Position numbers and translations under genes: made by a program
Notes under the pieces: model-generated
Database searches by the model: none
Told to the model about the DNA's origin: nothing
The model's input: the letters and a program-made list of their open reading frames with translations, nothing else
Shown: positions 2,381-40,916 of the stretch, in pieces
How the letters are laid out: each line of letters opens with the position of its first letter
Position numbering within the stretch: position 1 is the first letter of the stretch
Source of the DNA: a virus
Lineage: Duplodnaviria; Heunggongvirae; Uroviricota; Caudoviricetes
Reading direction: 5' to 3' (one strand)
DNA length: 44,150 bases
Virus record (IMG/VR): IMGVR_UViG_3300045988_004957

Positions 2381-2572
2381 ATGAAACACGAATACGACCG
2401 CAAACCAGCACGTGACATCGTACCGGGCGACATGATTTTCAACGTTAAGACCCGTCGGCCTGTTGCCGTGGATACGGTGTTCGTCGAGTCGAACGGTAAA
2501 CTGGTTATCGAAGACGTAACTGGCAACGTTACCGCGTTCGGGCGTAAAGAGCTTGTTCTGGTGGCAAAATGA
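2381..2572 (+). CDS. hypothetical protein (63 aa)
   Basis: RBS AAGGAA upstream of ATG 2381; stop overlaps helicase start. Confidence 0.5.
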   Translation: MKHEYDRKPARDIVPGDMIFNVKTRRPVAVDTVFVESNGKLVIEDVTGNVTAFGRKELVLVAK

Positions 2573-3993
2573 GTAAGTTTCAAAGGCGCGAATACCAGAA
2601 GCTCATGACTTCGTTCATGCTGCAACACCCGCGCTGTAATATCTGGTGTGGCATGGGAGGGGGTAAAACCTCCTCTACTATGTGGGTGTTAAACCGCTTG
2701 TTCCGCAACGGGCAGCTTACAGAAGAGGACCGCGTGTTAATCCTCGCCCCGTTGCGTGTTGCGTCGGGTACGTGGCCTGCAGAACAAGAGAAATGGAACT
2801 TCCCTTGTCTGCGTGTCGTCGATGCGACCGGTTCGGAGAAGCGCCGCATCGCGGCGCTGGAGTCAGACGCTAACGTGGTGTGCACTAACTACGAAGTTAT
2901 CGAGTGGCTAATTGACTACTACGGCAAAGACGACTGGCCTTTTACGGTTATCGTTGCCGATGAAAGCACGAAGCTTAAATCGTTCCGCAGCCGTTCGGGT
3001 GGTAGCAAGCGGGCAAAGGCGCTCAGCAAGGTTGCGTTCGGAAAGGTTAAGCGTTTCATCAACCTGACAGGCACACCGTCACCAAACGGCCTCAAAGACT
3101 TGTGGGGTCAGAACTGGTTTATCGACGCTGGCGAGCGCCTCGGCTCTTCGTACACAGCATTCACCGACCGCTGGTTTAACTCGGTACAGAAAGGTAAATC
3201 GGCTATGGCCCGCGAGTATCATGCACGACCGGGTGCGGATAATGAGATTCATCAGAAGATGAAAGACATCAGCCTGACCATAGACCCTGCCGAGTGGTTT
3301 GGTTGTGAAGCGCCTGTTATCGTACCGGTGGAAATAGACCTGCCGAAGAAAGCGCGTCAGGCGTACATAGATATGGAGGAGAAGTTATTCGCAGAACTGG
3401 AGAGCGGGGAAGTTGAAGCGGCTAACGCTGCGGCGAAGACCTCAAAGTGCTTGCAGATTGCATCTGGTGCCGTGTATGTGTCAGGGCCGGATGGCGAAGC
3501 GACCAAAGACTGGGAGAAAGTGCACGACACGAAACTGGATGCGCTCGAGTCGATTGTTGAGGAGTTGCAGGGTGCGCCGTTGCTGGTAGCCTATCAGTTT
3601 AAACACGAACTGGAGCGTATCCTTAAGCGATTCCCACAGGCACAGGCGTTCGCCAAAGGCGCTAGGGGGAACAAGCAGATGGAAGCGTGGAACCGTGGGG
3701 AAATCGAGATTTTATGCGTGCATCCTGCGTCAGCCGGGCATGGTTTGAATTTACAGGACGGGGGTCATCATCTGGCGTTCATCTCGCAAGGCTGGAACCT
3801 TGAGCACTATTTGCAGGTTGTTGAGCGCATAGGCCCAGTCCGCCAGAAACAGGCGGGTCACGAGCGCCCGGTGTTCCTTTATCACATCGTTGCTAAAGAC
3901 ACTCTGGACGAGGTTGTCGCCGCGCGTACCGACGAGAAGAAATCGGTACAGGAAGAGTTGCTTAATTACATGAAGAGACGAGGTAAGAAATGA
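2569..3993 (+). CDS. SNF2/DEAD-like superfamily-2 helicase
   Basis: Walker A GMGGGKT, DEST box in VIVADESTKLK, C-terminal helicase-like region; 474 aa. Confidence 0.8.
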   Translation: MSKFQRREYQKLMTSFMLQHPRCNIWCGMGGGKTSSTMWVLNRLFRNGQLTEEDRVLILAPLRVASGTWPAEQEKWNFPCLRVVDATGSEKRRIAALESDANVVCTNYEVIEWLIDYYGKDDWPFTVIVADESTKLKSFRSRSGGSKRAKALSKVAFGKVKRFINLTGTPSPNGLKDLWGQNWFIDAGERLGSSYTAFTDRWFNSVQKGKSAMAREYHARPGADNEIHQKMKDISLTIDPAEWFGCEAPVIVPVEIDLPKKARQAYIDMEEKLFAELESGEVEAANAAAKTSKCLQIASGAVYVSGPDGEATKDWEKVHDTKLDALESIVEELQGAPLLVAYQFKHELERILKRFPQAQAFAKGARGNKQMEAWNRGEIEILCVHPASAGHGLNLQDGGHHLAFISQGWNLEHYLQVVERIGPVRQKQAGHERPVFLYHIVAKDTLDEVVAARTDEKKSVQEELLNYMKRRGKK

Positions 3994-4505: not shown

Positions 4506-4639
4506 ACATCATAGCCCCAATTCCGGCATTGCAAAAACGTATCAAGGAACTCGAAGAAGAGGTTCTGCGGCTACGTCAGCAAAGAGACGCCGCTAATGCG
4601 CAACTGGCGTTTGTACTGGAGAAGTTATCAGAAGAGTAG
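4502..4639 (+). CDS. hypothetical coiled-coil protein (45 aa)
   Basis: ATG 4502 overlapping previous stop; heptad-like KELEEEVLRLRQQ; last ORF before terminator. Confidence 0.35.
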   Translation: MNIIAPIPALQKRIKELEEEVLRLRQQRDAANAQLAFVLEKLSEE

Positions 4640-4643
4640 AGAA

Positions 4644-4670
4644 AAGGCCCCGTTTGGGGCCTTAGTTTTA
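4644..4670. terminator. bidirectional rho-independent terminator
   Basis: AAGGCCCC-GTTT-GGGGCCTT followed by AGTTTTA; lies between convergent plus operon and minus tailspike gene. Confidence 0.7.
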
Positions 4671-6653
4671 AGCCAACGACATTCGGGAGTTAGCGAAAGC
4701 TAAAGCCTGAGCCTGCGTCGTAAACTCAGCGATGAAGAAGTCACTAAATCTGATAACAGCACCTGAACCTCCCCCAGTAGAGACGTACAGACCTACAGTA
4801 CCGTTAGCGGAAGCTTTACCCACCCCAAATGTGCTAATCCACTCACCAGACTTAGTATAAACGCTACCCATAGTAATACCTAACGTTATACTCACATCTG
4901 CTGTTCCTGATTGGAGGCGAGAGTTGACGCCCCACACGTACCATCTACCGGATGTAAGTGTCGTTCTTGACGCTACCATTTCATATAAACCGGACCCAGG
5001 GAATGAAAATTCGGTACATGTAGCGGCGTGAAGTCCGTCAGATACAGTCGAACCGTTAACGGTACCGCTACCAGAAAAATTATGGCTACCTGAGTCAAAT
5101 GTGATAGCTTTTAACTTATTCCCCGTCGGCGTATTAAACACTCGTCCCCTTGTTAAATTTCCTCGTAGAGACAAGTTTGTAGTGGCTATCGTTGCGGATT
5201 GCGACGCGACAGACTCTACAATAACGTCCTTTCCAGAGCTGCCGTTTAAATACACGTCGTGGGCTACGATGGTGCTTTGTGCATCCACTACAATATCCTG
5301 ATTACCATAGGCGTTGTCAAAACGGCAACCATAAGTTACTAAGTTGGAGTTGGATAGCTCGATGTTATTGAGATAAGAATACTCAGCAAAGAATATCGCG
5401 GTGTCTACCAACTTGAGAACTCGCGGTTTTTGCGCCACGCCGTCTACCTGAACAGCCGATGATGTTGCAATAGCTTCCATCCATACATTGGATACCCCGC
5501 ATGGAGATGTAGGACAGTCACCCGATTTGCTTTTTAAATATATCCCGCCGCCTCCGGAAGCCTCAATAATGGAGTCTTTAAGCCACCATCCGCCTATCCC
5601 GCCGTTATCGACAGTGCCGTTTAGGTAGACGGCATAGGTGGAGATGCCGTCGAAGTGGATATTGTAGAGGGTATCGGCCCCGCAATGCATCTCTGAGCCA
5701 CTAATCGCGTAATACCCCCAATCACACGTAGATACCCCAATATTTCTCCATGTATTACCGATGTTCCCGGAAGGCTTCTGAATGGCCTTGTTGATGTTGT
5801 GGATGTATAAATCACTAAAATTATGACGTCCGGAATATTTGTCTGACGGGTCAAAACTAATACCTGCGGCCCCAGTTGTACCTGTACCATCTACGGCAAA
5901 ACCACCGCTGTGTCGAAACTGCCAGTGCGGGGTGGATAAATTAACCTGTACAGTATTTGCATAGTTTGCCGATGGTTTTAATATTGCAGCACCACCTACA
6001 CCTTTTATCTGCTTACTACCCAGAGTGATTGCTTCTGTATACTCACCCGGAGAAACAATTAAGTCGTTTTTAGTTAACGACGCATCTACCGCGGCTTGAA
6101 GGGTAGAAAAGTCGCCAGAATGCTTAATATCATTGTTACGTGCAAGCAAACTCCTTTCGCCACTGCCTATGTTCTTGGCACCTTCCGCGTCAGATAATGT
6201 TTCAACGGTGTTACCGTTGGAAAAAGACACCAGTGAAGCCCCTAAACCGGCGGTACTTGACGCCAAATCATTACGCAAATTTTGGTCTGTCTGCGGCTTC
6301 CAGTTAGCGTTACCGACTGGATTAAAACTCGCGGGAACAACAACCGGCAACGTACCCGCATATGAGTACCACGTCTTGCTTACGGGGTCATACACCACTT
6401 TGTCGCGGTCATTAACTGTTAACGTACCGCCGGTGGAAAAGTCCCACGATACGGGAGAAAAACCGGCATCACGCAACACAGCAGGAAGCGTCTTCTGGGT
6501 CTGCCCGGTAACAGGGTTGGTCGCGTAATCAATATCGGCGCCACCAGCAACCCCGCCGGATTTACCGGTGATAACCTCGGCTTCAAAAATTTGGTGTTTC
6601 TTGACGGTTTGTAAATCCGCCAGGCTTAAAACGTCACCGCATCCGCTTGACAT
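4668..6653 (-). CDS. tailspike with pectate-lyase-like beta-helix
   Basis: 661 aa, Gly/Asn/Ser-rich repetitive segments typical of right-handed beta-helix depolymerases; last gene of tail module. Confidence 0.65.
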   Translation of the reverse strand: MSSGCGDVLSLADLQTVKKHQIFEAEVITGKSGGVAGGADIDYATNPVTGQTQKTLPAVLRDAGFSPVSWDFSTGGTLTVNDRDKVVYDPVSKTWYSYAGTLPVVVPASFNPVGNANWKPQTDQNLRNDLASSTAGLGASLVSFSNGNTVETLSDAEGAKNIGSGERSLLARNNDIKHSGDFSTLQAAVDASLTKNDLIVSPGEYTEAITLGSKQIKGVGGAAILKPSANYANTVQVNLSTPHWQFRHSGGFAVDGTGTTGAAGISFDPSDKYSGRHNFSDLYIHNINKAIQKPSGNIGNTWRNIGVSTCDWGYYAISGSEMHCGADTLYNIHFDGISTYAVYLNGTVDNGGIGGWWLKDSIIEASGGGGIYLKSKSGDCPTSPCGVSNVWMEAIATSSAVQVDGVAQKPRVLKLVDTAIFFAEYSYLNNIELSNSNLVTYGCRFDNAYGNQDIVVDAQSTIVAHDVYLNGSSGKDVIVESVASQSATIATTNLSLRGNLTRGRVFNTPTGNKLKAITFDSGSHNFSGSGTVNGSTVSDGLHAATCTEFSFPGSGLYEMVASRTTLTSGRWYVWGVNSRLQSGTADVSITLGITMGSVYTKSGEWISTFGVGKASANGTVGLYVSTGGGSGAVIRFSDFFIAEFTTQAQALAFANSRMSLA

Positions 6654-23459: not shown

Positions 23460-23723
23460 CTATTCCAGAATATTCCTCACGTAATCCTGCAACATGAACA
23501 CTTTCAGCCGCAGCTGCCGTACGCATTCAGCGTTCTGAACGTCGATAGCTAAATCCTCGTCAGCGTCGCTACTTGGCGCTGCCAGTTTGCACGGAGGCTG
23601 CATCATCGTCGTATCCGGTAATGGAATTAGCGTTTGCGACGGCGTGGGACTTGAGCTGCACGCGCTCAGGGTCAAAAGTGCACACGCTGCGACCCGGCGT
23701 TTTAATGTATTTAACGACTTCAC
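23460..23723 (-). CDS. o-spanin (Rz1-like lipoprotein)
   Basis: Signal peptide with lipobox LSAC then Pro-rich mature part; begins inside i-spanin gene in another frame and extends past it. Confidence 0.7.
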   Translation of the reverse strand: MKSLNTLKRRVAACALLTLSACSSSPTPSQTLIPLPDTTMMQPPCKLAAPSSDADEDLAIDVQNAECVRQLRLKVFMLQDYVRNILE

Positions 23724-23955
23724 GGGTAATCACCTCTGATTTCGTCTTGCCTTCGTTGTCGGCGGCGGCGGCCTTTGATTCGTCCTGCTGCTGCCGTTGT
23801 GTTTTCTTCGCTAACTCAGCCTGCGCTTTCTGCTGTTGCTGCGAAACGAGATTCGCCCGGCCTTCGCTCCAGCCGCTGCGATACTGGTAAATGCCGTGGG
23901 CGTAAGCCAGGATGATGAAACATGCTCCCGCTACGACAGTTGCTTTAAGATTCAT
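23569..23955 (-). CDS. i-spanin (Rz-like)
   Basis: N-terminal TM helix followed by charged Gln/Ala/Lys-rich periplasmic domain; overlaps o-spanin. Confidence 0.7.
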   Translation of the reverse strand: MNLKATVVAGACFIILAYAHGIYQYRSGWSEGRANLVSQQQQKAQAELAKKTQRQQQDESKAAAADNEGKTKSEVITREVVKYIKTPGRSVCTFDPERVQLKSHAVANANSITGYDDDAASVQTGSAK

Positions 23956-31381: not shown

Positions 31382-31581
31382 TAGTTATTCTCCAGTATTT
31401 CTAACGCTTTCACGAGGTAACGTTTACGTAAAACATCAGTCTGCGCGCTATTAGCCCTGCGTATGTAGCCCGCAGCAGCCCTCATCTGTAGTTTTTCCAC
31501 CGAACCATTCCCTATTATAGCTGATGCGATACATTTAACTTCGAGTTCTTCGGTTATTTCTATCGTCGATACGTTGCCCAT
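31381..31581 (-). CDS. hypothetical protein
   Basis: 66 aa, first gene after promoter 31616..31644; SD GGAG. Confidence 0.45.
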   Translation of the reverse strand: MGNVSTIEITEELEVKCIASAIIGNGSVEKLQMRAAAGYIRRANSAQTDVLRKRYLVKALEILENN

Positions 31582-31615
31582 TTCTCTCTACTCCGTTCTC
31601 GTTGTCGATGAAGTA

Positions 31616-31644
31616 AATATAATAGGGTCGAGGATAATAGTCAA
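31616..31644 (-). promoter_or_regulatory. sigma70-like promoter for small-gene cluster
   Basis: Minus strand TTGACT-17 bp-TATATT immediately downstream of the lysis-cassette terminator. Confidence 0.5.
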
Positions 31645-31674
31645 CTAGTCATCACAGAAAATAGATAAAAAAAA

Positions 31675-31702
31675 TCCCGGCTGGGTCAGGGCCGGGATAA
31701 AA
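31675..31702 (-). terminator. rho-independent terminator after lysis cassette
   Basis: Stem TCCCGGC / GCCGGGA with 9-nt loop flanked on minus strand by T4 and T8 runs. Confidence 0.7.
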
Positions 31703-31762
31703 CTGGAGAGCAGAGGGATGGAGCAGGAGGTGATTTAAGTATCGTCGGATTAGTCTTATGTG

Positions 31763-32248
31763 TCAACCTTTCACCGCGCGCCCGATAGCCTCTGCCTCTT
31801 GCCACGGTTTACCGTCGAACAGTGCCAGACGTCCGGCGGTACGGCGACGCAGGCCTAGTAACGGTTTGCCGTTCTGGTTGATGAACAGCGCCAGCTTAGC
31901 CCGCAGCGTTGCAATATCACCAGAACGCAGTGCCTTACCCGTGCCGGTAGTAGCTGCAATCACACCAGCACCTGCGTTGTATACCAGGTCGCACACTGCA
32001 TCGAACTGTGCCTGTGTCAATGAATGGTGTGCTGCTGCGTCAACCGCAGCTACGGCCTTAGCCATATCGCGATTCAGTAGCAGTAGACCTTGTCCCGGCG
32101 TGATTGTTTGCCCCGCCTTAACGTCCGGCCCGTAGTGACCGTACCCGATAGTCAGGTACTTCTCATTTGGCGTAGCACGATACGCAGTTCCGCGGAATCC
32201 CTCGAACGCGGCGGTGAATTTGATGCCATTGTTGCTAATGTTTCTCAT
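31763..32248 (-). CDS. endolysin (GH24 T4-lysozyme-like)
   Basis: N-terminal catalytic region FEGFRGTAYRATPNEKYLTIGYG with Glu-Asp-Thr spacing; no signal-anchor. Confidence 0.8.
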   Translation of the reverse strand: MRNISNNGIKFTAAFEGFRGTAYRATPNEKYLTIGYGHYGPDVKAGQTITPGQGLLLLNRDMAKAVAAVDAAAHHSLTQAQFDAVCDLVYNAGAGVIAATTGTGKALRSGDIATLRAKLALFINQNGKPLLGLRRRTAGRLALFDGKPWQEAEAIGRAVKG

Positions 32249-32778
32249 AAAGCACCTTCCCGTAATTTATGGTTCGCGAAAACCCCGTGTATCTTCTCTC
32301 TAGCTTCTTCGGCAACTAGCGCGGCTAGTTCTAGGTCCGCAAAGTATCCGTAAAAATACTTAATCTTATGTATTTTTAATTGAACGTACCATCCTCCTTG
32401 TTGCTTCTGCCACATAACGTTCTTAATACCGGATTTGCTGTCCTTTCTTGGCCCTTTGTTGCATCCGTTTTCGGATTTGTTGGCTTCACGTAAATTACAG
32501 AATCTATTATCACGACCATCGCCGTTTATGTGGTCTATTAGGGAGTTGGGCCATTCCCCTGTCATGTATAGCCAAGCGAGACGATGCGCCAAGTACCGCT
32601 TCCCACCGAAGGCTATGGAGCGATAGCCTGCACAATGGTTGGCGCCAGCCTCACTTCCCGCCCGAGCATTGTGCACACGTGTAGCTTTCCATGTAAAAAC
32701 TCCGGTATCGGGGTCGTAGTGTAAAACCTCGCGCAGCTTATCTGCGGTAAGTCCATTATCTGAAATGTTTCGAGACAC
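32245..32778 (-). CDS. HNH endonuclease
   Basis: HNH core LIDHINGDGRDNRFCNLREA..N; start taken at GTG 32778 with SD GGAGGA; ATGA coupling to endolysin. Confidence 0.75.
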   Translation of the reverse strand: MSRNISDNGLTADKLREVLHYDPDTGVFTWKATRVHNARAGSEAGANHCAGYRSIAFGGKRYLAHRLAWLYMTGEWPNSLIDHINGDGRDNRFCNLREANKSENGCNKGPRKDSKSGIKNVMWQKQQGGWYVQLKIHKIKYFYGYFADLELAALVAEEAREKIHGVFANHKLREGAL

Positions 32779-33028
32779 GCTTATGTCCTCCGTACGACAG
32801 CCACGCCTGACGAATCTGGCGCAGCGCAACTAAAGTGATTAATGTTTCCGGCAGCGTCGGTGACATGCTGCCTTGTAACAGGTGGATACAACCTGCGGCG
32901 CAGACAATAGCAGTGAGGATATACAGCACACGACCAAACAGACCGTCGTCTACGCTGGGGTGGTATACGTTAAACAGCGATGTGCCCCCGATTGCGAGCA
33001 TACCGCAAAACCAGAATAACTCATTCAT
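32756..33028 (-). CDS. two-TM membrane protein (holin-associated)
   Basis: ATG 33028 overlapping holin stop; two hydrophobic helices. Confidence 0.45.
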   Translation of the reverse strand: MNELFWFCGMLAIGGTSLFNVYHPSVDDGLFGRVLYILTAIVCAAGCIHLLQGSMSPTLPETLITLVALRQIRQAWLSYGGHKRVSKHFR

Positions 33029-33329
33029 TACCACCTCCGCGGCGTGCGATATATTCTCCGGCGACAATGCCAGAGAGACGGGAATAAATTGGCATCCAGA
33101 GAATAGCAATGATGAATCCAAGGCCCGCTATTTCGCGTTCACCTGCGATACCGAACCATTGAGCGGCGAGAGGCGCACCGAATACGGCGCACGCAAAGCC
33201 AGTGGCGAGAAAACAGAGAGCATCGACAGGGCCGGTAATAGTGGCTTTGTGTTGCCGTAAGCCTATTACCCCACCAGCTAATGCGGCAGCGAGAAGCCAC
33301 CCCGTCACTGTTTCAGTAAATTTATCCAA
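33021..33329 (-). CDS. putative holin
   Basis: 102 aa with TM helices and charged C-terminus, first gene of lysis cassette; start codon is TTG. Confidence 0.5.
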   Translation of the reverse strand: MDKFTETVTGWLLAAALAGGVIGLRQHKATITGPVDALCFLATGFACAVFGAPLAAQWFGIAGEREIAGLGFIIAILWMPIYSRLSGIVAGEYIARRGGGNE

Positions 33330-33375
33330 GATGAAGCCACCCCGTCACTGTTTCAGTAAATTTATCCAAGATGAA
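33293..33375. repeat. 40-bp tandem direct repeat (2 copies) across the holin start
   Basis: 33293..33332 identical to 33333..33372, next 3 nt also repeat. Confidence 0.9.
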
Positions 33376-33444
33376 TCCTCCAGGTGCGTATTAAGTATGC
33401 AGTAACTGGAGGATAGCACGGTTAGGAATTATCTTAATAACGGT

Positions 33445-33742
33445 TTATTTATGACGCCAGATGTATTGTCGTCTCTGCGGTTTAGTCGGAATATCATCGT
33501 ATCCGAGCGATTTCCAGTAATTAAATAACCGATTAGCGATTGCCGCGCGTTCCTGTGTTTTAAACTCTCCTAGATTCACGGCCTTTCCGTTCTGGAATCC
33601 ACAGGCGCGGATAGCTTTACGCCGTTCTTGTATCTCTGGGTACAGCACGTTACGGCGACGCTTGTGTATACGTGTCTTCGCTCTCGGTGACAGCGGCGCA
33701 AGGCCGCTTCGTTTCAGGATGTCAGTTGCTAACGACATCACT
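33445..33742 (-). CDS. hypothetical protein
   Basis: Start taken at ATG 33742; basic 98 aa ORF. Confidence 0.4.
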
Positions 33743-33940
33743 CCACCCCTCCACATGTGTAACCGACCCACAGTTCGCGCACTCGACGTAATCAGGGTAC
33801 TGGTCTTTGTATTTCTGTAACTCAGCTTCAAGTTCCTGCAGTTTAAAATCAAGGTTCTGGTAATCCTCAAATTTAACCCACTCCCCATTACGGTCGATGA
33901 AATGGTTATCCGACCCATATTTAGAATATCTTGCCACCAT
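33722..33940 (-). CDS. hypothetical protein
   Basis: Start ATG 33940 with SD AGGAGAAG; CxxC near C-terminus. Confidence 0.45.
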   Translation of the reverse strand: MVARYSKYGSDNHFIDRNGEWVKFEDYQNLDFKLQELEAELQKYKDQYPDYVECANCGSVTHVEGWSDVVSN

Positions 33941-33942
33941 AA

Positions 33943-34146
33943 TCACTTCTCCTGTTTTCCAAGTCGCTTAGGTGAGCAGATAGCGCGTACCTCTGAATCG
34001 TTGGGCTTGTCGCCCTGAAACAGGAAGTGCGCGTTCTCTGCGGCGCGTGCCGCTGACTGGCACGCCTCCATCGAGTAAAACGTTTCTGATGCCGCTAGTT
34101 GCATCTGGCCCGCCGACAATACCCAGATAAATAAGATGCTGGTCAT
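33943..34146 (-). CDS. small secreted-like protein
   Basis: ATG 34146 (ATGA coupling); hydrophobic N-terminal signal-like segment. Confidence 0.4.
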   Translation of the reverse strand: MTSILFIWVLSAGQMQLAASETFYSMEACQSAARAAENAHFLFQGDKPNDSEVRAICSPKRLGKQEK

Positions 34147-34676
34147 TGCTTCGCCTCCACACCACATTTACGGCAATACGGAACACCAGGTCTATTGCCA
34201 AAAACCGTCTTACATCTCCACTCATGCTCACATTCCTGAGTATCGTTTTTCGGTTTATATACCTTGTCGTCCCACTCACGTTTACCACATTTAGAGCAAA
34301 GCTCACTACCAGGAACGTTGTTCGGATTGCCTTCGCTGAGAAACAACCCAGGCATAATAATCCAAGAGTGCTCGCATTCCTGAACGTCTTCCTTACGGCA
34401 ACCGGATTGCTCGGGTCCGTGTTCGCCTGCTACGTAGCTCTTCCCATTAGGCAGTGGGCCGCCGTGGTTGGTTACACGGTAGAAGTCCTCATTCATTAAC
34501 GTTATTGTCCCCAGTAGCTCATCCACCAGCGCCGAAGCATCACGTAACTGATTCTTTAGTGACTGCACCTCATGCGCCAGGTCTTCGCACCGGTTGTTAT
34601 TTACCTGCTGCCGTAGCTGGTCAATCAGGTACTCGAATACTTCGTTTTTATTGTTCACTCTGTCTCCCCCCCTCAC
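34143..34676 (-). CDS. Cys/His-rich hypothetical protein (zinc-ribbon-like repeats)
   Basis: Two internal repeats QECEH.W ... C.KCG; coiled-coil N-terminus; real start may be GTG 34658. Confidence 0.5.
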   Translation of the reverse strand: MRGGDRVNNKNEVFEYLIDQLRQQVNNNRCEDLAHEVQSLKNQLRDASALVDELLGTITLMNEDFYRVTNHGGPLPNGKSYVAGEHGPEQSGCRKEDVQECEHSWIIMPGLFLSEGNPNNVPGSELCSKCGKREWDDKVYKPKNDTQECEHEWRCKTVFGNRPGVPYCRKCGVEAKQ

Positions 34677-34955
34677 TTATTCAACAGCACCTGTTATTGC
34701 TATAAGCCCGGTGTTACCGCGGCGGCGATACTTACGAATCACCGTTTTAAGCTCTTCATTGCTACTCTGATGCCCGAAAGTTATAGGCAACTCCCCCCCG
34801 CCGGCCATACCAAACTCAGTAGCTATTGGCTTGTCTCGCCACCCCTGGATGAACCCGTTACTGTCACGCGTTATGTATCTGTAGTTGTTGGGGAGGGGCA
34901 ACTCCAGCCCCTCAAAATCAACAGTCACGGTGTAGCTGCTAAAATTCATAGTCAA
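34677..34955 (-). CDS. hypothetical protein
   Basis: ORF-track start is TTG; ATG at 34949 more likely. Confidence 0.45.
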   Translation of the reverse strand: MTMNFSSYTVTVDFEGLELPLPNNYRYITRDSNGFIQGWRDKPIATEFGMAGGGELPITFGHQSSNEELKTVIRKYRRRGNTGLIAITGAVE

Positions 34956-35088
34956 TTACCCCGAACTCATTGATGATTTGAGCCTTGTAGAAGTTGCCGT
35001 TTGAGGCCAGGTGATATGCCTGCGCCATAGTCATCTCACGGTAAGTTGCTGCGCTGTTTTCAAACTCCATAATCATCAAAGTAACCAT
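34939..35088 (-). CDS. hypothetical protein (49 aa)
   Basis: ATG 35088 with SD GGAGAGG, first ORF downstream of promoter site 3. Confidence 0.35.
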   Translation of the reverse strand: MVTLMIMEFENSAATYREMTMAQAYHLASNGNFYKAQIINEFGVIDYEF

Positions 35089-35118
35089 CTCTGCCTCTCC
35101 TCTCGTTTGTGTAAATGA

Positions 35119-35147
35119 ATAGTAGACTATTCTATCCCAGTGTGCAA
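35119..35147 (-). promoter_or_regulatory. sigma70-like promoter with embedded dyad (site 3)
   Basis: Minus strand TTGCAC-17 bp-TACTAT; perfect dyad AATAGT-AG-ACTATT at 35118..35131. Confidence 0.5.
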
Positions 35148-35283
35148 GTAAATTTTATTGGTGTCTGTTATTGTTGCATCTCCTGCAATAGTCGCTTCGA
35201 TTGTTGCGTTTCGTGCAAGTGTCGCCTTTTGACGACACTAAGCTAAAGTTGTACGCTGCTGTGTAGCAGCGTAAGTCACTCAG

Positions 35284-35457
35284 TCAATTAGTAACCTTTT
35301 GACCTGTTACACCACCTGTTATACCCGCCCTTGCTTGCACACCAGCTTTCCACGCCCGCCACGCAAGACGCGTCTTAACGTTCAGGTACTCTTTCTTCGA
35401 ACCCTTGTTAACCGGCAGCCCCTCGACGATGGCCCATCGTTCAAATGCTTCTCTCAT
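35284..35457 (-). CDS. hypothetical protein
   Basis: Start taken at ATG 35457; basic. Confidence 0.35.
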   Translation of the reverse strand: MREAFERWAIVEGLPVNKGSKKEYLNVKTRLAWRAWKAGVQARAGITGGVTGQKVTN

Positions 35458-35508
35458 ACCAACCCCCACAACGCGTGCGCCACATAAACGGCGCTGACAA
35501 TTAAAATG

Positions 35509-35745
35509 TTATCCACGGCAACCTCCCTCAGAGTCGTCGGCACGAGCATCATGATTAGATGCCGTTGTGTATACCTTCGCTTCTGCCTTAGTTACCGGGA
35601 TTGTGTATCTTCCTGTCTTAATCCACCAGCCATCCTCACAGGAATCCAGTACATTGAAAACATCACCCACATTTACGCCTATTTTCTCGAGAGTATCACC
35701 ATCTTCTTCGTAGATAACGGTGTTATCTGTAATTATGATTTGCAT
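35509..35745 (-). CDS. hypothetical protein
   Basis: ATG 35745 overlapping upstream stop; acidic 78 aa. Confidence 0.45.
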   Translation of the reverse strand: MQIIITDNTVIYEEDGDTLEKIGVNVGDVFNVLDSCEDGWWIKTGRYTIPVTKAEAKVYTTASNHDARADDSEGGCRG

Positions 35746-40145: not shown

Positions 40146-40373
40146 ATGAACACAATAACGGGAGCCATAGCTAAAGGTTTTCTAGCAATTTTCGGAGAAT
40201 CGCAGGAAGTGTGCACAAAACATAAATTTGTACTTTCTTGCGTAGTCGGGGACGAGTTTGATGGGTTCGATAAACTTGTTGTCTGCGACCATTGCGGGCA
40301 AGAAGCTATTCAACACCCAAACGGTAAATTTGAATTAATAGACGATAGCCTTACAGAAGGCGACGGCGAGTAA
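40146..40373 (+). CDS. hypothetical protein (CxxC-containing)
   Basis: 75 aa, first gene after switch promoters; CDHCG motif; SD GAGAGGGG. Confidence 0.45.
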   Translation: MNTITGAIAKGFLAIFGESQEVCTKHKFVLSCVVGDEFDGFDKLVVCDHCGQEAIQHPNGKFELIDDSLTEGDGE

Positions 40374-40397
40374 CCCAAATAAACAGGAGAATAAATA

Positions 40398-40916
40398 ATG
40401 TTAGAGAAATTCTTAGTATTACTGGAACGTTTCGTAGTTGCGCATGAACTGATTGCTGCGAACAGTGCACGCCGTACTGAACTGCCGAAGGCTATCACGG
40501 CGCCATATGGTAAAGACGTCGACAGTGGTGTCGCAGAAACTGCAACAATCACGCCTACTGTTGTAAAAGAAGAAACAAAAGAAATCCCGGTCGAGGGTGA
40601 AGACGTAGTTGACACTAAACCGGCAGAAGAAGAGAAGCCGAAACGCAAGCCGCGTAAAGCTAAAGTAGAGGAACCTGCGCCAGAACCGGAAGAAGAGAAA
40701 GAAGAAGTCGATTACAAGTCTCTGCGTGACCAGATTCAGGCCATCGACGATGCAATTAATGAAGGTCCTAGCGATGCCGCGTGCGATGATTCTGATGAAC
40801 TGCTGGAAGAGTTCACAGGTAAGAAGATGAAGATTGCCGCGATTAAAGACGAAGACCTGGTTGAGTACCTGGAACGCCTGACAGCAATCAAGAACAAGTA
40901 TTTCGAAGAAGAATAA
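40398..40916 (+). CDS. acidic hypothetical protein
   Basis: 172 aa with Glu/Asp-rich C-terminal half and a basic KPKRKPRKAK patch; strong SD. Confidence 0.5.
   Translation: MLEKFLVLLERFVVAHELIAANSARRTELPKAITAPYGKDVDSGVAETATITPTVVKEETKEIPVEGEDVVDTKPAEEEKPKRKPRKAKVEEPAPEPEEEKEEVDYKSLRDQIQAIDDAINEGPSDAACDDSDELLEEFTGKKMKIAAIKDEDLVEYLERLTAIKNKYFEEE

Follow-up and report, generated by a model that had tools for sequence, protein, structure and literature searches.

The lysis genes of a 44,150-bp virus sequence (IMG/VR record IMGVR_UViG_3300045988_004957, Caudoviricetes; here called the window, meaning the whole stretch of DNA analysed) contain an open reading frame (ORF) for an HNH endonuclease. 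Comparisons with related genomes indicate that this ORF is very probably a free-standing homing endonuclease gene, with an I-HmuI-like HNH core and an AP2-type domain, which was acquired recently and lies in-frame after codon 10 of the endolysin gene. The window aligns end to end with phage SHAK7858 at ~95% identity, circularly permuted and reverse-complemented, and this alignment identifies it as the complete genome of a Kagunavirus (Guernseyvirinae), an E. coli phage. A megablast search with the locus returned 253 phage records, all of them Guernseyvirinae, with identities of ~88–96% for the E. coli Kagunaviruses and lower values for the Salmonella Jerseyviruses. The lysis and spanin genes are all encoded on the minus strand, as are the captured start, the mobile insert, the terminator and the tandem duplication located below.

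Alignment of the locus with four relatives, read codon by codon across the junctions, reveals an exchange of gene starts. In the HNH-less phage Bas72 the endolysin starts at a Shine–Dalgarno (SD) sequence and a GTG that overlap holin II (GTG TCT CGA AAT ATT TCA GAT AAT GGA TTG CAT TTT ACC GCC, that is, VSRNISDNGLHFTAAFEG), and the endolysin of the HNH-less Salmonella phage Shelanagig starts at the equivalent place (MSDRNISDNGLHFTAAFEG). The uninterrupted N-terminus reads MSRNISDNGL|HFTAAFEG, the bar marking the insertion point after codon 10. In the window this endolysin start (32791..32749), consisting of the SD GGAGGA (32791..32786), a GTG after a 7-nt spacer, and the first ten codons MSRNISDNGL, continues directly into HNH TADKLREVLHYDPDTG and now initiates the HNH ORF (32778..32245, GTG start, 177 amino acids (aa)), whose first 23 nt are shared with the end of holin II. 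The mobile insert, visible as a gap in the alignment with Bas72, covers 32748..32219 (530 bp, a net gain of 527 bp) and comprises HNH codons 11–177, a new SD, a new ATG and nine recoded endolysin codons. The new SD GGAAGGTG (32260..32253) lies inside the last HNH codons, the new ATG is at 32248, and the HNH stop and the endolysin start overlap as ATGA. The restarted endolysin reads ATG AGA AAC ATT AGC AAC AAT GGC ATC AAA | TTC ACC GCC, that is, MRNISNNGIK|FTAAFEG, so that the insert is flanked by an imperfect repeat of endolysin N-terminal codons (15 of 24 nt identical; for example, Ser TCA has become AGC and Arg CGA has become AGA). As the 3' end of the insert supplies a ribosome-binding site (RBS), an ATG and nine recoded codons, the endolysin remains complete and the lysis cassette is still one overlapping series of genes. 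An earlier interpretation made from the letters of the window without database searches (the sequence-only reading) had placed the HNH gene between holin and endolysin and had it overlap both neighbours. Both overlaps are as described there and the gene order is correct; the intergenic placement is not, as the gene sits after endolysin codon 10 and has taken over the endolysin start.

A group I intron or an intein was also considered as an explanation for the interruption and was excluded. There is no Rfam group I or group II intron match at E ≤ 1 within 31500..33500 (the other Rfam matches are two sub-threshold, terminator-like sRNA matches at 31667..31722), the insert is all coding, and the endolysin has its own SD and ATG. 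HNH gene and endolysin form two distinct ORFs, and each of them has an SD and a start of its own.

Which parts of the arrangement are mobile and which belong to the host gene can be judged from a comparison with the Salmonella phage SETP13. The recoded endolysin codons differ by one base between the window and SETP13. The captured codons on the left follow the host genus, with 20 of 30 nt identical between the two phages, compared with 98% identity over the next 500 nt. The recoded codons thus belong to the mobile segment, and the captured start is host sequence. Many HNH homologues start directly with M-(L/I)-T, aligned to Leu10-Thr11 of the window protein, and residues 1–10 are of low confidence in the structure model (mean pLDDT, the predicted local distance difference test score, of 57); MSRNISDNG is thus a borrowed leader and no part of the enzyme. 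The nearest non-identical homologues (67–80% identity in a search of 5.8 billion proteins) are all encoded directly upstream of a Phage_lysozyme gene on Guernseyvirinae-like contigs. In one of these (L014) the ORF is preceded by an SD of its own, starts as MLTASRL... and is followed by an endolysin beginning MPRNISDNGLKF, and other metagenomic homologues carry progressively decayed endolysin-like leaders (MRNISDKDI, MPRNTNKPL, MPRTANRT).

The distribution of the insert among relatives is sporadic. Empty junctions were counted with a 60-nt query across the junction at a coverage of at least 80%; a 201-nt junction query was set aside, because pieces up to ~600 nt apart were joined and could bridge the 527-nt insertion. 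With the 60-nt query, 104 records have an uninterrupted junction, and these include nearly all of the ~112 Kagunavirus-like records. The HNH gene is absent from ~100 of these ~112 records and also from most Jerseyviruses. The allele found in the window (allele A) is present nearly full-length in 18 records at 96–100% nucleotide identity (BUCT825, ZCEC5 and nine distinct Salmonella Jerseyviruses, RefSeq duplicates being counted once), and a second allele (allele B, with 49% amino acid identity to A) is present in 16 records (SHAK7858, DUEC01 and eleven Jerseyviruses). Both alleles are inserted after the same endolysin codon, in a scattered minority of two genera. Allele A is missing from the closest overall relatives of the window: 22664BS2 and Bas72 are empty, and the site in SHAK7858 is occupied by allele B. 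At the junction, NG(L/I)KF is found in each of the seven examined alleles that carry an HNH gene and NGLHF in the two empty ones. The synteny comparison proposed in the sequence-only reading, between relatives with and without the gene, therefore shows that the gene comes and goes among close relatives at a single fixed site, which is empty in most of them and interrupted at the same codon in the minority. An ancestral HNH gene located elsewhere in relatives, which that reading had named as evidence against itself, was not seen among them. A tblastn search with alleles A and B found no second HNH_3 gene elsewhere in the window.

Two further HNH types were considered and dropped. A separate "S102 type" and "SHAK7858 type" are one allele, being 94% identical at the nucleotide level. 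A third type, suggested by the label "HNH endonuclease" on a gene beside the lysin in the records of the Salmonella phages S55 and LDW16, does not exist, as the labelled 291-bp gene is a mis-annotated holin.

Sequence identity changes abruptly at the borders of the cassette. The window and BUCT825 are 100% identical over 575 nt (32785..32211), including 500 of 500 nt in the body of the HNH gene, with the nearest mismatches at 32786 and 32210, compared with identities of 76% in holin I, 83% in holin II and 88–90% in the endolysin. Relative to SETP13, the HNH body is 98% identical, compared with 37–52% in the holins, 75–78% in the endolysin, and 35–80% generally outside the insert. An insert far closer between genomes than its flanks is the pattern left by horizontal transfer, and the comparison shows that the cassette was acquired horizontally and recently. 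The sequence-only reading had described the HNH gene as domesticated or recently inserted. The second half of that description agrees with the shared codon and the 575 nt of full identity between divergent flanks; the first does not, given that the gene is dispensable in most relatives.

A 575-bp tract could also have been carried along by ordinary recombination among Guernseyvirinae, the HNH protein being inactive or irrelevant to the spread. The locus is indeed mosaic: ahead of the holins the small genes vary and an HslV-like protease gene is optional, the endolysin of the window has a patch of substitutions of its own, and the endonuclease activity is a prediction. However, the identity tract is tightly centred on the HNH gene, mismatches returning within 1–8 nt at either end of the cassette, the same cassette is found in two genera whose holins do not align, and two different HNH alleles occupy the same codon. 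The condition of the protein argues in the same direction. The HNH ORF is intact in all 34 records with allele A or B, the catalytic residues D82-H83, N95 and N104/N107 are invariant among 34 homologues, and the proportion of nonsynonymous differences (pN) is far below that of synonymous differences (pS). We consider it improbable that the HNH gene is such a passive passenger.

The enzyme itself agrees with the homing endonuclease reading. The ORF matches Pfam HNH_3 (E = 2.5e-14; residues 62–105, nt 32464..32595) and PHROG 99, HNH endonuclease (E = 1.3e-69). Its architecture consists of an I-HmuI-like N-terminal part and HNH core, a beta-beta-alpha-metal domain in which the catalytic residues are intact, followed by a C-terminal AP2-like DNA-binding domain (residues 117–165, nt 32284..32430). 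Site-specific HNH enzymes of phages typically have this architecture, and several of them nick a single strand (PMC2988022). Between diverged HNH lineages pN is 0.17–0.24 and synonymous sites are saturated (pS 0.86–0.96), for which reason we give no dN/dS ratio and state only that pN is much smaller than pS. Because pN is low at saturated synonymous sites, the protein appears to be under purifying selection and to have long been kept functional at this one locus. We also note HNH proteins that are 49–50% identical to this one in Felixounaviruses (FelixO1-like myoviruses; e.g. MN850605.1, 55956..56471), in many of which they are encoded beside a 5'-3' exonuclease gene; the same enzyme family thus occurs in a different gene neighbourhood of an unrelated phage group.

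Purifying selection could alternatively reflect a function that the HNH protein performs for the phage, for example help to the terminase in packaging, as with the HK97 gp74 type, or degradation of host DNA at lysis. A Kagunavirus genome paper speculates that HNH genes may promote packaging (PMC9825357), and in the window the gene is part of the late lysis operon, the terminase genes following ~2.3 kb further downstream. The HNH gene is not, however, beside the terminase or portal genes, about 11 small genes lying in between, and its core and AP2 domain have the architecture of a site-specific homing enzyme. Moreover, ~100 of ~112 Kagunavirus-like records and most Jerseyviruses are without the gene, and these phages are viable, and it has been deleted in two phages that carry its remnant. 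Domestication therefore seems to us very unlikely.

These two phages, Bas73 and Bas74, provide a footprint of the insertion. Of their HNH ORF, 78 nt at the 5' end and 39 nt at the 3' end remain, together with the replacement endolysin start. GTTTT microhomologies border the in-frame deletion of 417 nt (equivalent to 32700..32284), which has reduced the gene to an ORF of 38 codons; this remnant retains the captured start and still meets the endolysin in an ATGA. The footprint is located at 2565..2691 in Bas73 and at ~40310..40422 in Bas74 (PQ850627.1), where the records annotate a 105-nt "hypothetical protein" in another frame. A deletion that preserves the reading frame and ends at the same ATGA could be taken as a sign that the HNH ORF serves to regulate endolysin translation, its termination at the ATGA tuning the holin to endolysin ratio or the timing of lysis, and it is true that the endolysin ATG overlaps the HNH stop and that the new SD lies within HNH coding sequence. 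Yet the deletion is a single event seen in two phages, one in three random deletions would be in-frame, and in SETP13 the HNH stop is not at an ATGA but 14 nt inside the endolysin. That the ORF exists as a coupling module is, in our estimation, extremely improbable.

Further information on how the cassettes travel comes from the endolysin sequence next to them. In SHAK7858 the first ~120–135 nt of the endolysin are 93–100% identical to Salmonella phage S102 and only ~60% identical to the Kagunavirus Bas72, whereas the rest of the gene is 90–100% identical to Bas72. The same 5' segment is foreign in S102 too when compared with the HNH-less Jerseyvirus Shelanagig. Allele B thus travels with ~43 recoded endolysin codons and allele A with ten. 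For allele A, the mismatch-free tract shared with BUCT825 outreaches the insert by just 8 nt on the endolysin side (to 32211) and by 37 nt on the upstream side (to 32785).

These results lead us to propose how a homing endonuclease gene could have spread at this site; we infer both cleavage and homing by the enzyme from sequence. The in-frame junction would probably go back to a single event, in which HNH codon 2 was joined illegitimately to endolysin codon 9/10. The resulting composite, with homology on both sides, could afterwards have homed efficiently through Jersey- and K1G-type phages. During co-infection the enzyme would nick or cut the uninterrupted endolysin allele near the insertion point, the predicted nick or cut in the HNH-less allele lying near GATAATGGATTGCATTTTACCGCC. 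Repair from the HNH-carrying genome would then copy the cassette together with the adjacent endolysin 5' sequence (intronless homing with co-conversion), and the interruption and the recoded first codons would make the carrier refractory. Once fixed in a lineage the HNH gene could decay, as the footprint in Bas73 and Bas74 suggests, and a precise loss by recombination between the repeated N-terminal segments would give hybrid endolysin N-termini, e.g. MSRNISDNGLKF. Homing, nicking and co-conversion by free-standing HNH enzymes are a general mechanism, and the term "intronless homing" was defined for the Seg and Mob enzymes of T4 (PMC2988022). To the phage the HNH enzyme gives no evident service.

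Several points weigh against this interpretation. The window sequence right after the insert (ACCGCCGCGTTCGAGGG) is identical to that of HNH-less alleles, and any self-immunity would therefore have to rest on the interruption and the ten recoded codons. No clear co-conversion tract of allele A beyond the recoded codons is seen in the window, the clear tract being that of allele B. Ordinary homologous recombination between co-infecting mosaic phages could move the 575-bp tract without an endonuclease, and the case for cleavage, nicking or homing by the HNH enzyme, here or in close relatives, is built on sequence comparison. RefSeq/GenBank duplicates inflate the numbers of relatives, which also vary with the BLAST coverage threshold applied.

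A more far-reaching scenario combines these elements. Alleles A and B would long have competed for one endolysin codon across at least two genera, with the recoded 5' stretches acting as immunity, and the dependence of endolysin translation on the inserted ORF would stabilise the element in an addiction-like manner. We regard this combined scenario as rather unlikely. If it were true, the competition between two alleles would mean that endonucleases drive marker exclusion and the replacement of endolysin 5' alleles between E. coli and Salmonella phages. The start swap would likewise mean that the selfish gene is expressed from the RBS of the host gene and the endolysin from the 3' end of the selfish gene, so that the element, even as a 38-codon remnant, could not be lost without a lysis defect.

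Small siphoviruses of E. coli and Salmonella such as these already serve as chassis for synthetic biology and therapy, and the locus offers a compact system in them that lends itself to experiments. Homing by an HNH-AP2 enzyme, co-conversion across genera, competition between two alleles, and the cost or benefit of a selfish gene in a lysis operon could all be measured there. For phage engineering, the site after endolysin codon 10 naturally tolerates a 0.5-kb in-operon insertion. For annotation, the HNH gene and the endolysin share a duplicated N-terminal coding motif, and gene callers often mis-start or mislabel them. The BUCT825 record splits the intact HNH gene into an "endonuclease" and a "hypothetical protein", the S4lw record labels it "putative class I holin", and the Bas72 record lets the endolysin begin at an internal start (393 nt rather than 489 nt, 31 codons short). 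In addition, SHAK7858 is filed under Autographiviridae/Kayfunavirus and named vB_EcoM, though it is a Kagunavirus siphovirus.

The lysis cassette around the HNH gene begins with holin I (33329..33021; TTG start, 102 aa), a class I-like protein with three hydrophobic segments that matches the holin family PHROG 2359 (E = 3.7e-29) and is annotated as a holin in relatives. It is followed by holin II (33028..32756; ATG start, 90 aa), a class II-like protein with two hydrophobic segments matching the holin family PHROG 2508 (E = 7.8e-34), whose ATG overlaps the holin I stop (ATGAATGA). Downstream of the HNH ORF, the endolysin (32248..31763, 161 aa) is of the GH24 (T4/P22-lysozyme) type, with matches to Pfam Phage_lysozyme (E = 2.9e-27) and to PHROG endolysin families. 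It has no signal-anchor-release (SAR) or signal segment and no hydrophobic stretch (maximum Kyte–Doolittle value 1.33) and would be soluble; Glu16, the predicted catalytic residue, lies within the conserved FEGFRG motif near the N-terminus. By its domain, by Glu16 and by the lack of a SAR or signal segment it corresponds to the canonical holin-dependent GH24/Phage_lysozyme type. The succession of holin, two-transmembrane protein, HNH gene and GH24 endolysin given in the sequence-only reading is borne out by these four ORFs and the profile matches, which agree with it, and the strong terminator that it placed at the end of the cassette is present. The intrinsic terminator (31698..31666) has an 8-bp GC-rich stem (31698–31691 paired with 31681–31674), a 9-nt loop and a run of eight T (31673–31666), and it folds with a free energy of −13.9 kcal/mol (z-score −2.2). 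A consensus terminator scanner missed it, its loop limit being 8 nt, and it was found by eye and by folding. The terminator is kept in SHAK7858, Bas72 and Bas73 and is annotated at the equivalent place in Shelanagig; a promoter-like site follows it at 31644..31616. As a separate observation, the window has its own substitutions in the endolysin at 32105..32147 (codons ~34–48), reading DVKAGQ where Bas72, Bas73 and BUCT825 have DVTPGK and Jerseyviruses have VKEGQ. These clustered changes, a short way downstream of the insert, look like a small mosaic patch in its own right.

The spanin genes are located away from this cassette. The Rz-like i-spanin (23955..23569, 128 aa) has an N-terminal transmembrane domain (residues 1–24) and matches PHROG 2536 (E = 1.3e-55). 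The Rz1-like o-spanin lipoprotein (23723..23460, 87 aa) is encoded in the +1 frame and matches PHROG 5672 (E = 3.2e-30) and PHROG 1267 (E = 1.3e-19). Its signal peptide MKSLNTLKRRVAACALLTLSA|C ends in the lipobox LSAC with a predicted lipidated Cys22, and the protein also contains Cys45 and Cys67. On closer analysis, therefore, the lipoprotein signal whose absence would have told against the spanin candidates of the sequence-only reading is present. The two genes overlap by 155 nt. The spanin family of Jersey is described as overlapped genes with a 155-bp overlap and conserved Cys45/Cys67, and it includes K1G-type phages (Kongari et al. 2018; PMC6139136). With all of these features, the spanins of the window are assignable by sequence to the Jersey-family overlapped two-component type. 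The pair lies 7.8 kb from the cassette in the head-gene cluster, in agreement with the earlier placement about 8 kb away beside the scaffold gene and another head gene, and in SHAK7858 the spanin genes are found at the equivalent place, with a Hoc-like head gene on one side and the scaffold gene on the other. The spanins of fBC-Eco01 are likewise apart from the cassette according to its genome paper (PMC9825357). A contiguous lambda-type cassette, with spanins right after the endolysin, is not found in the window. The separation expressed by the term "split lysis module" is thus real, but it is not peculiar to this phage, being the standard layout of the Jersey/K1G family. Since SHAK7858 and fBC-Eco01 share the layout, remote spanins are a clade norm; they represent no rearrangement and are unconnected with the HNH insertion.

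A perfect 40-bp tandem duplication (2.1 copies, 33293..33375; Tandem Repeats Finder score 166, 100% matches) lies across the start of holin I and is the only tandem repeat that Tandem Repeats Finder reports in the window. It is absent from all 115 related records, each of which has 76 nt where the query has 116 nt. The duplication places the SD GGAGGA (33381..33376) 40 nt further from the holin I TTG (33329). The copy of the TTG next to the SD (33369) opens a 15-codon out-of-frame ORF with a TAA at 33322, ending 3 nt past the real start. A stop codon is present five codons upstream in the holin I frame, so there is no in-frame alternative start. Judging from the sequence, either holin I would be made by weak initiation or re-initiation, affecting the timing of lysis, or the duplication would be an artefact of assembly or circularisation.

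The region upstream of the holins varies among relatives. BUCT825, Bas73, K-01, SZH-1 and 590B have an extra 441-bp gene annotated as "HslV-family peptidase / ATP-dependent protease" directly upstream of holin I (4550..4990 in BUCT825, 3302..3742 in Bas73). The window (at ~33400..33450) and other relatives are without it, which makes this gene a second presence/absence polymorphism flanking the lysis cassette. The longest ORF at 33445..33918 on the minus strand has 157 aa, of which only residues 61–157 match the family seen in relatives (PHROG 9632, 97 aa; a 294-bp gene), and its true start is probably internal. Further upstream, the small-gene region 34147..35743 shows patchy homology to SHAK7858, with blastn gaps at 34147–34594 and 35313–35743. 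One of its ORFs (34676..34143, 177 aa) has Cys pairs that recur along the protein (CEHxW...CxKCG), and the region appears to be a swapped block of accessory genes.

The closest known counterparts of the HNH insertion are the other carriers of allele A. The Salmonella Jerseyviruses SETP13, SETP7, AG11, SB3, STP03 and pink and the E. coli Kagunaviruses BUCT825 and ZCEC5 have the same HNH gene at 96–100% nucleotide identity. They share with the window its position after the NISDNGL codons and the replacement start MRNISNNGIKF, but their holins are only 37–83% identical to those of the window. The Jerseyviruses differ further in that the captured start is an ATG (MPNRNISDNGL) and that the HNH ORF runs on to a stop 14 nt inside the endolysin. 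The gene is already in GenBank as "HNH (homing) endonuclease" in several Jerseyvirus records, and a Jerseyvirus genome paper lists the homing endonuclease only as an accessory, mobile gene (PMC8425127). In a literature search, outside of which most subscription journals fell, we did not find a description of the start-swap architecture, of two alleles at one codon, or of a near-identical copy across genera of E. coli and Salmonella phages; such a missing description is no proof of novelty.

Among characterised enzymes, the core of the window protein resembles I-HmuI. I-HmuI and I-HmuII are HNH nicking homing endonucleases of the Bacillus phages SPO1 and SP82. The gene for I-HmuI resides in a group I intron within the DNA polymerase gene, and the enzyme ends in a helix-turn-helix domain, whereas the gene in the window is free-standing, without an intron, and its product ends in an AP2-like domain. 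The HNH proteins of the HK97 gp74 type are, like the window HNH, small phage proteins encoded not far from the terminase genes. They are reportedly (Kala et al. 2014) conserved in all members of their group, encoded beside the terminase and portal genes, and needed for cos cleavage. In contrast, ~90% or more of relatives lack the window HNH, whose gene is part of the lysis operon and is separated from the terminase by about 11 small genes (~2.3 kb); it does not belong to that type.

The Seg and Mob enzymes of T4 are, like the window HNH, free-standing and sporadic among relatives; they spread by recombinational repair and co-conversion, and their HNH members nick one strand (PMC2988022). Their genes are usually intergenic and they cut hundreds of bp away, in contrast to the window HNH, which is fused in-frame to ten host codons and uses the RBS of the host gene. 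Insertion of an HNH gene within a coding region with the host function kept is also seen for mobE in nrdA of Aeromonas phage Aeh1 and for mobA in the T4 topoisomerase gene (PMC2988022). In those cases two polypeptides must reassemble, whereas in the window the 10-codon piece is discarded, a substitute N-terminus is provided and the endolysin remains a single polypeptide. A parallel among lysis genes is the GIY-YIG gene between the spanin genes of the T5-like phages Shivani and phiR201, where the downstream o-spanin has a regenerated N-terminus (PMC6139136). That case differs from the window in nuclease family, target gene and phage group, and no start capture is described there. Free-standing homing endonuclease genes, co-conversion and the splitting of host genes are well established, and against this background the insertion in the endolysin gene is a solid but ordinary finding for phage biology.

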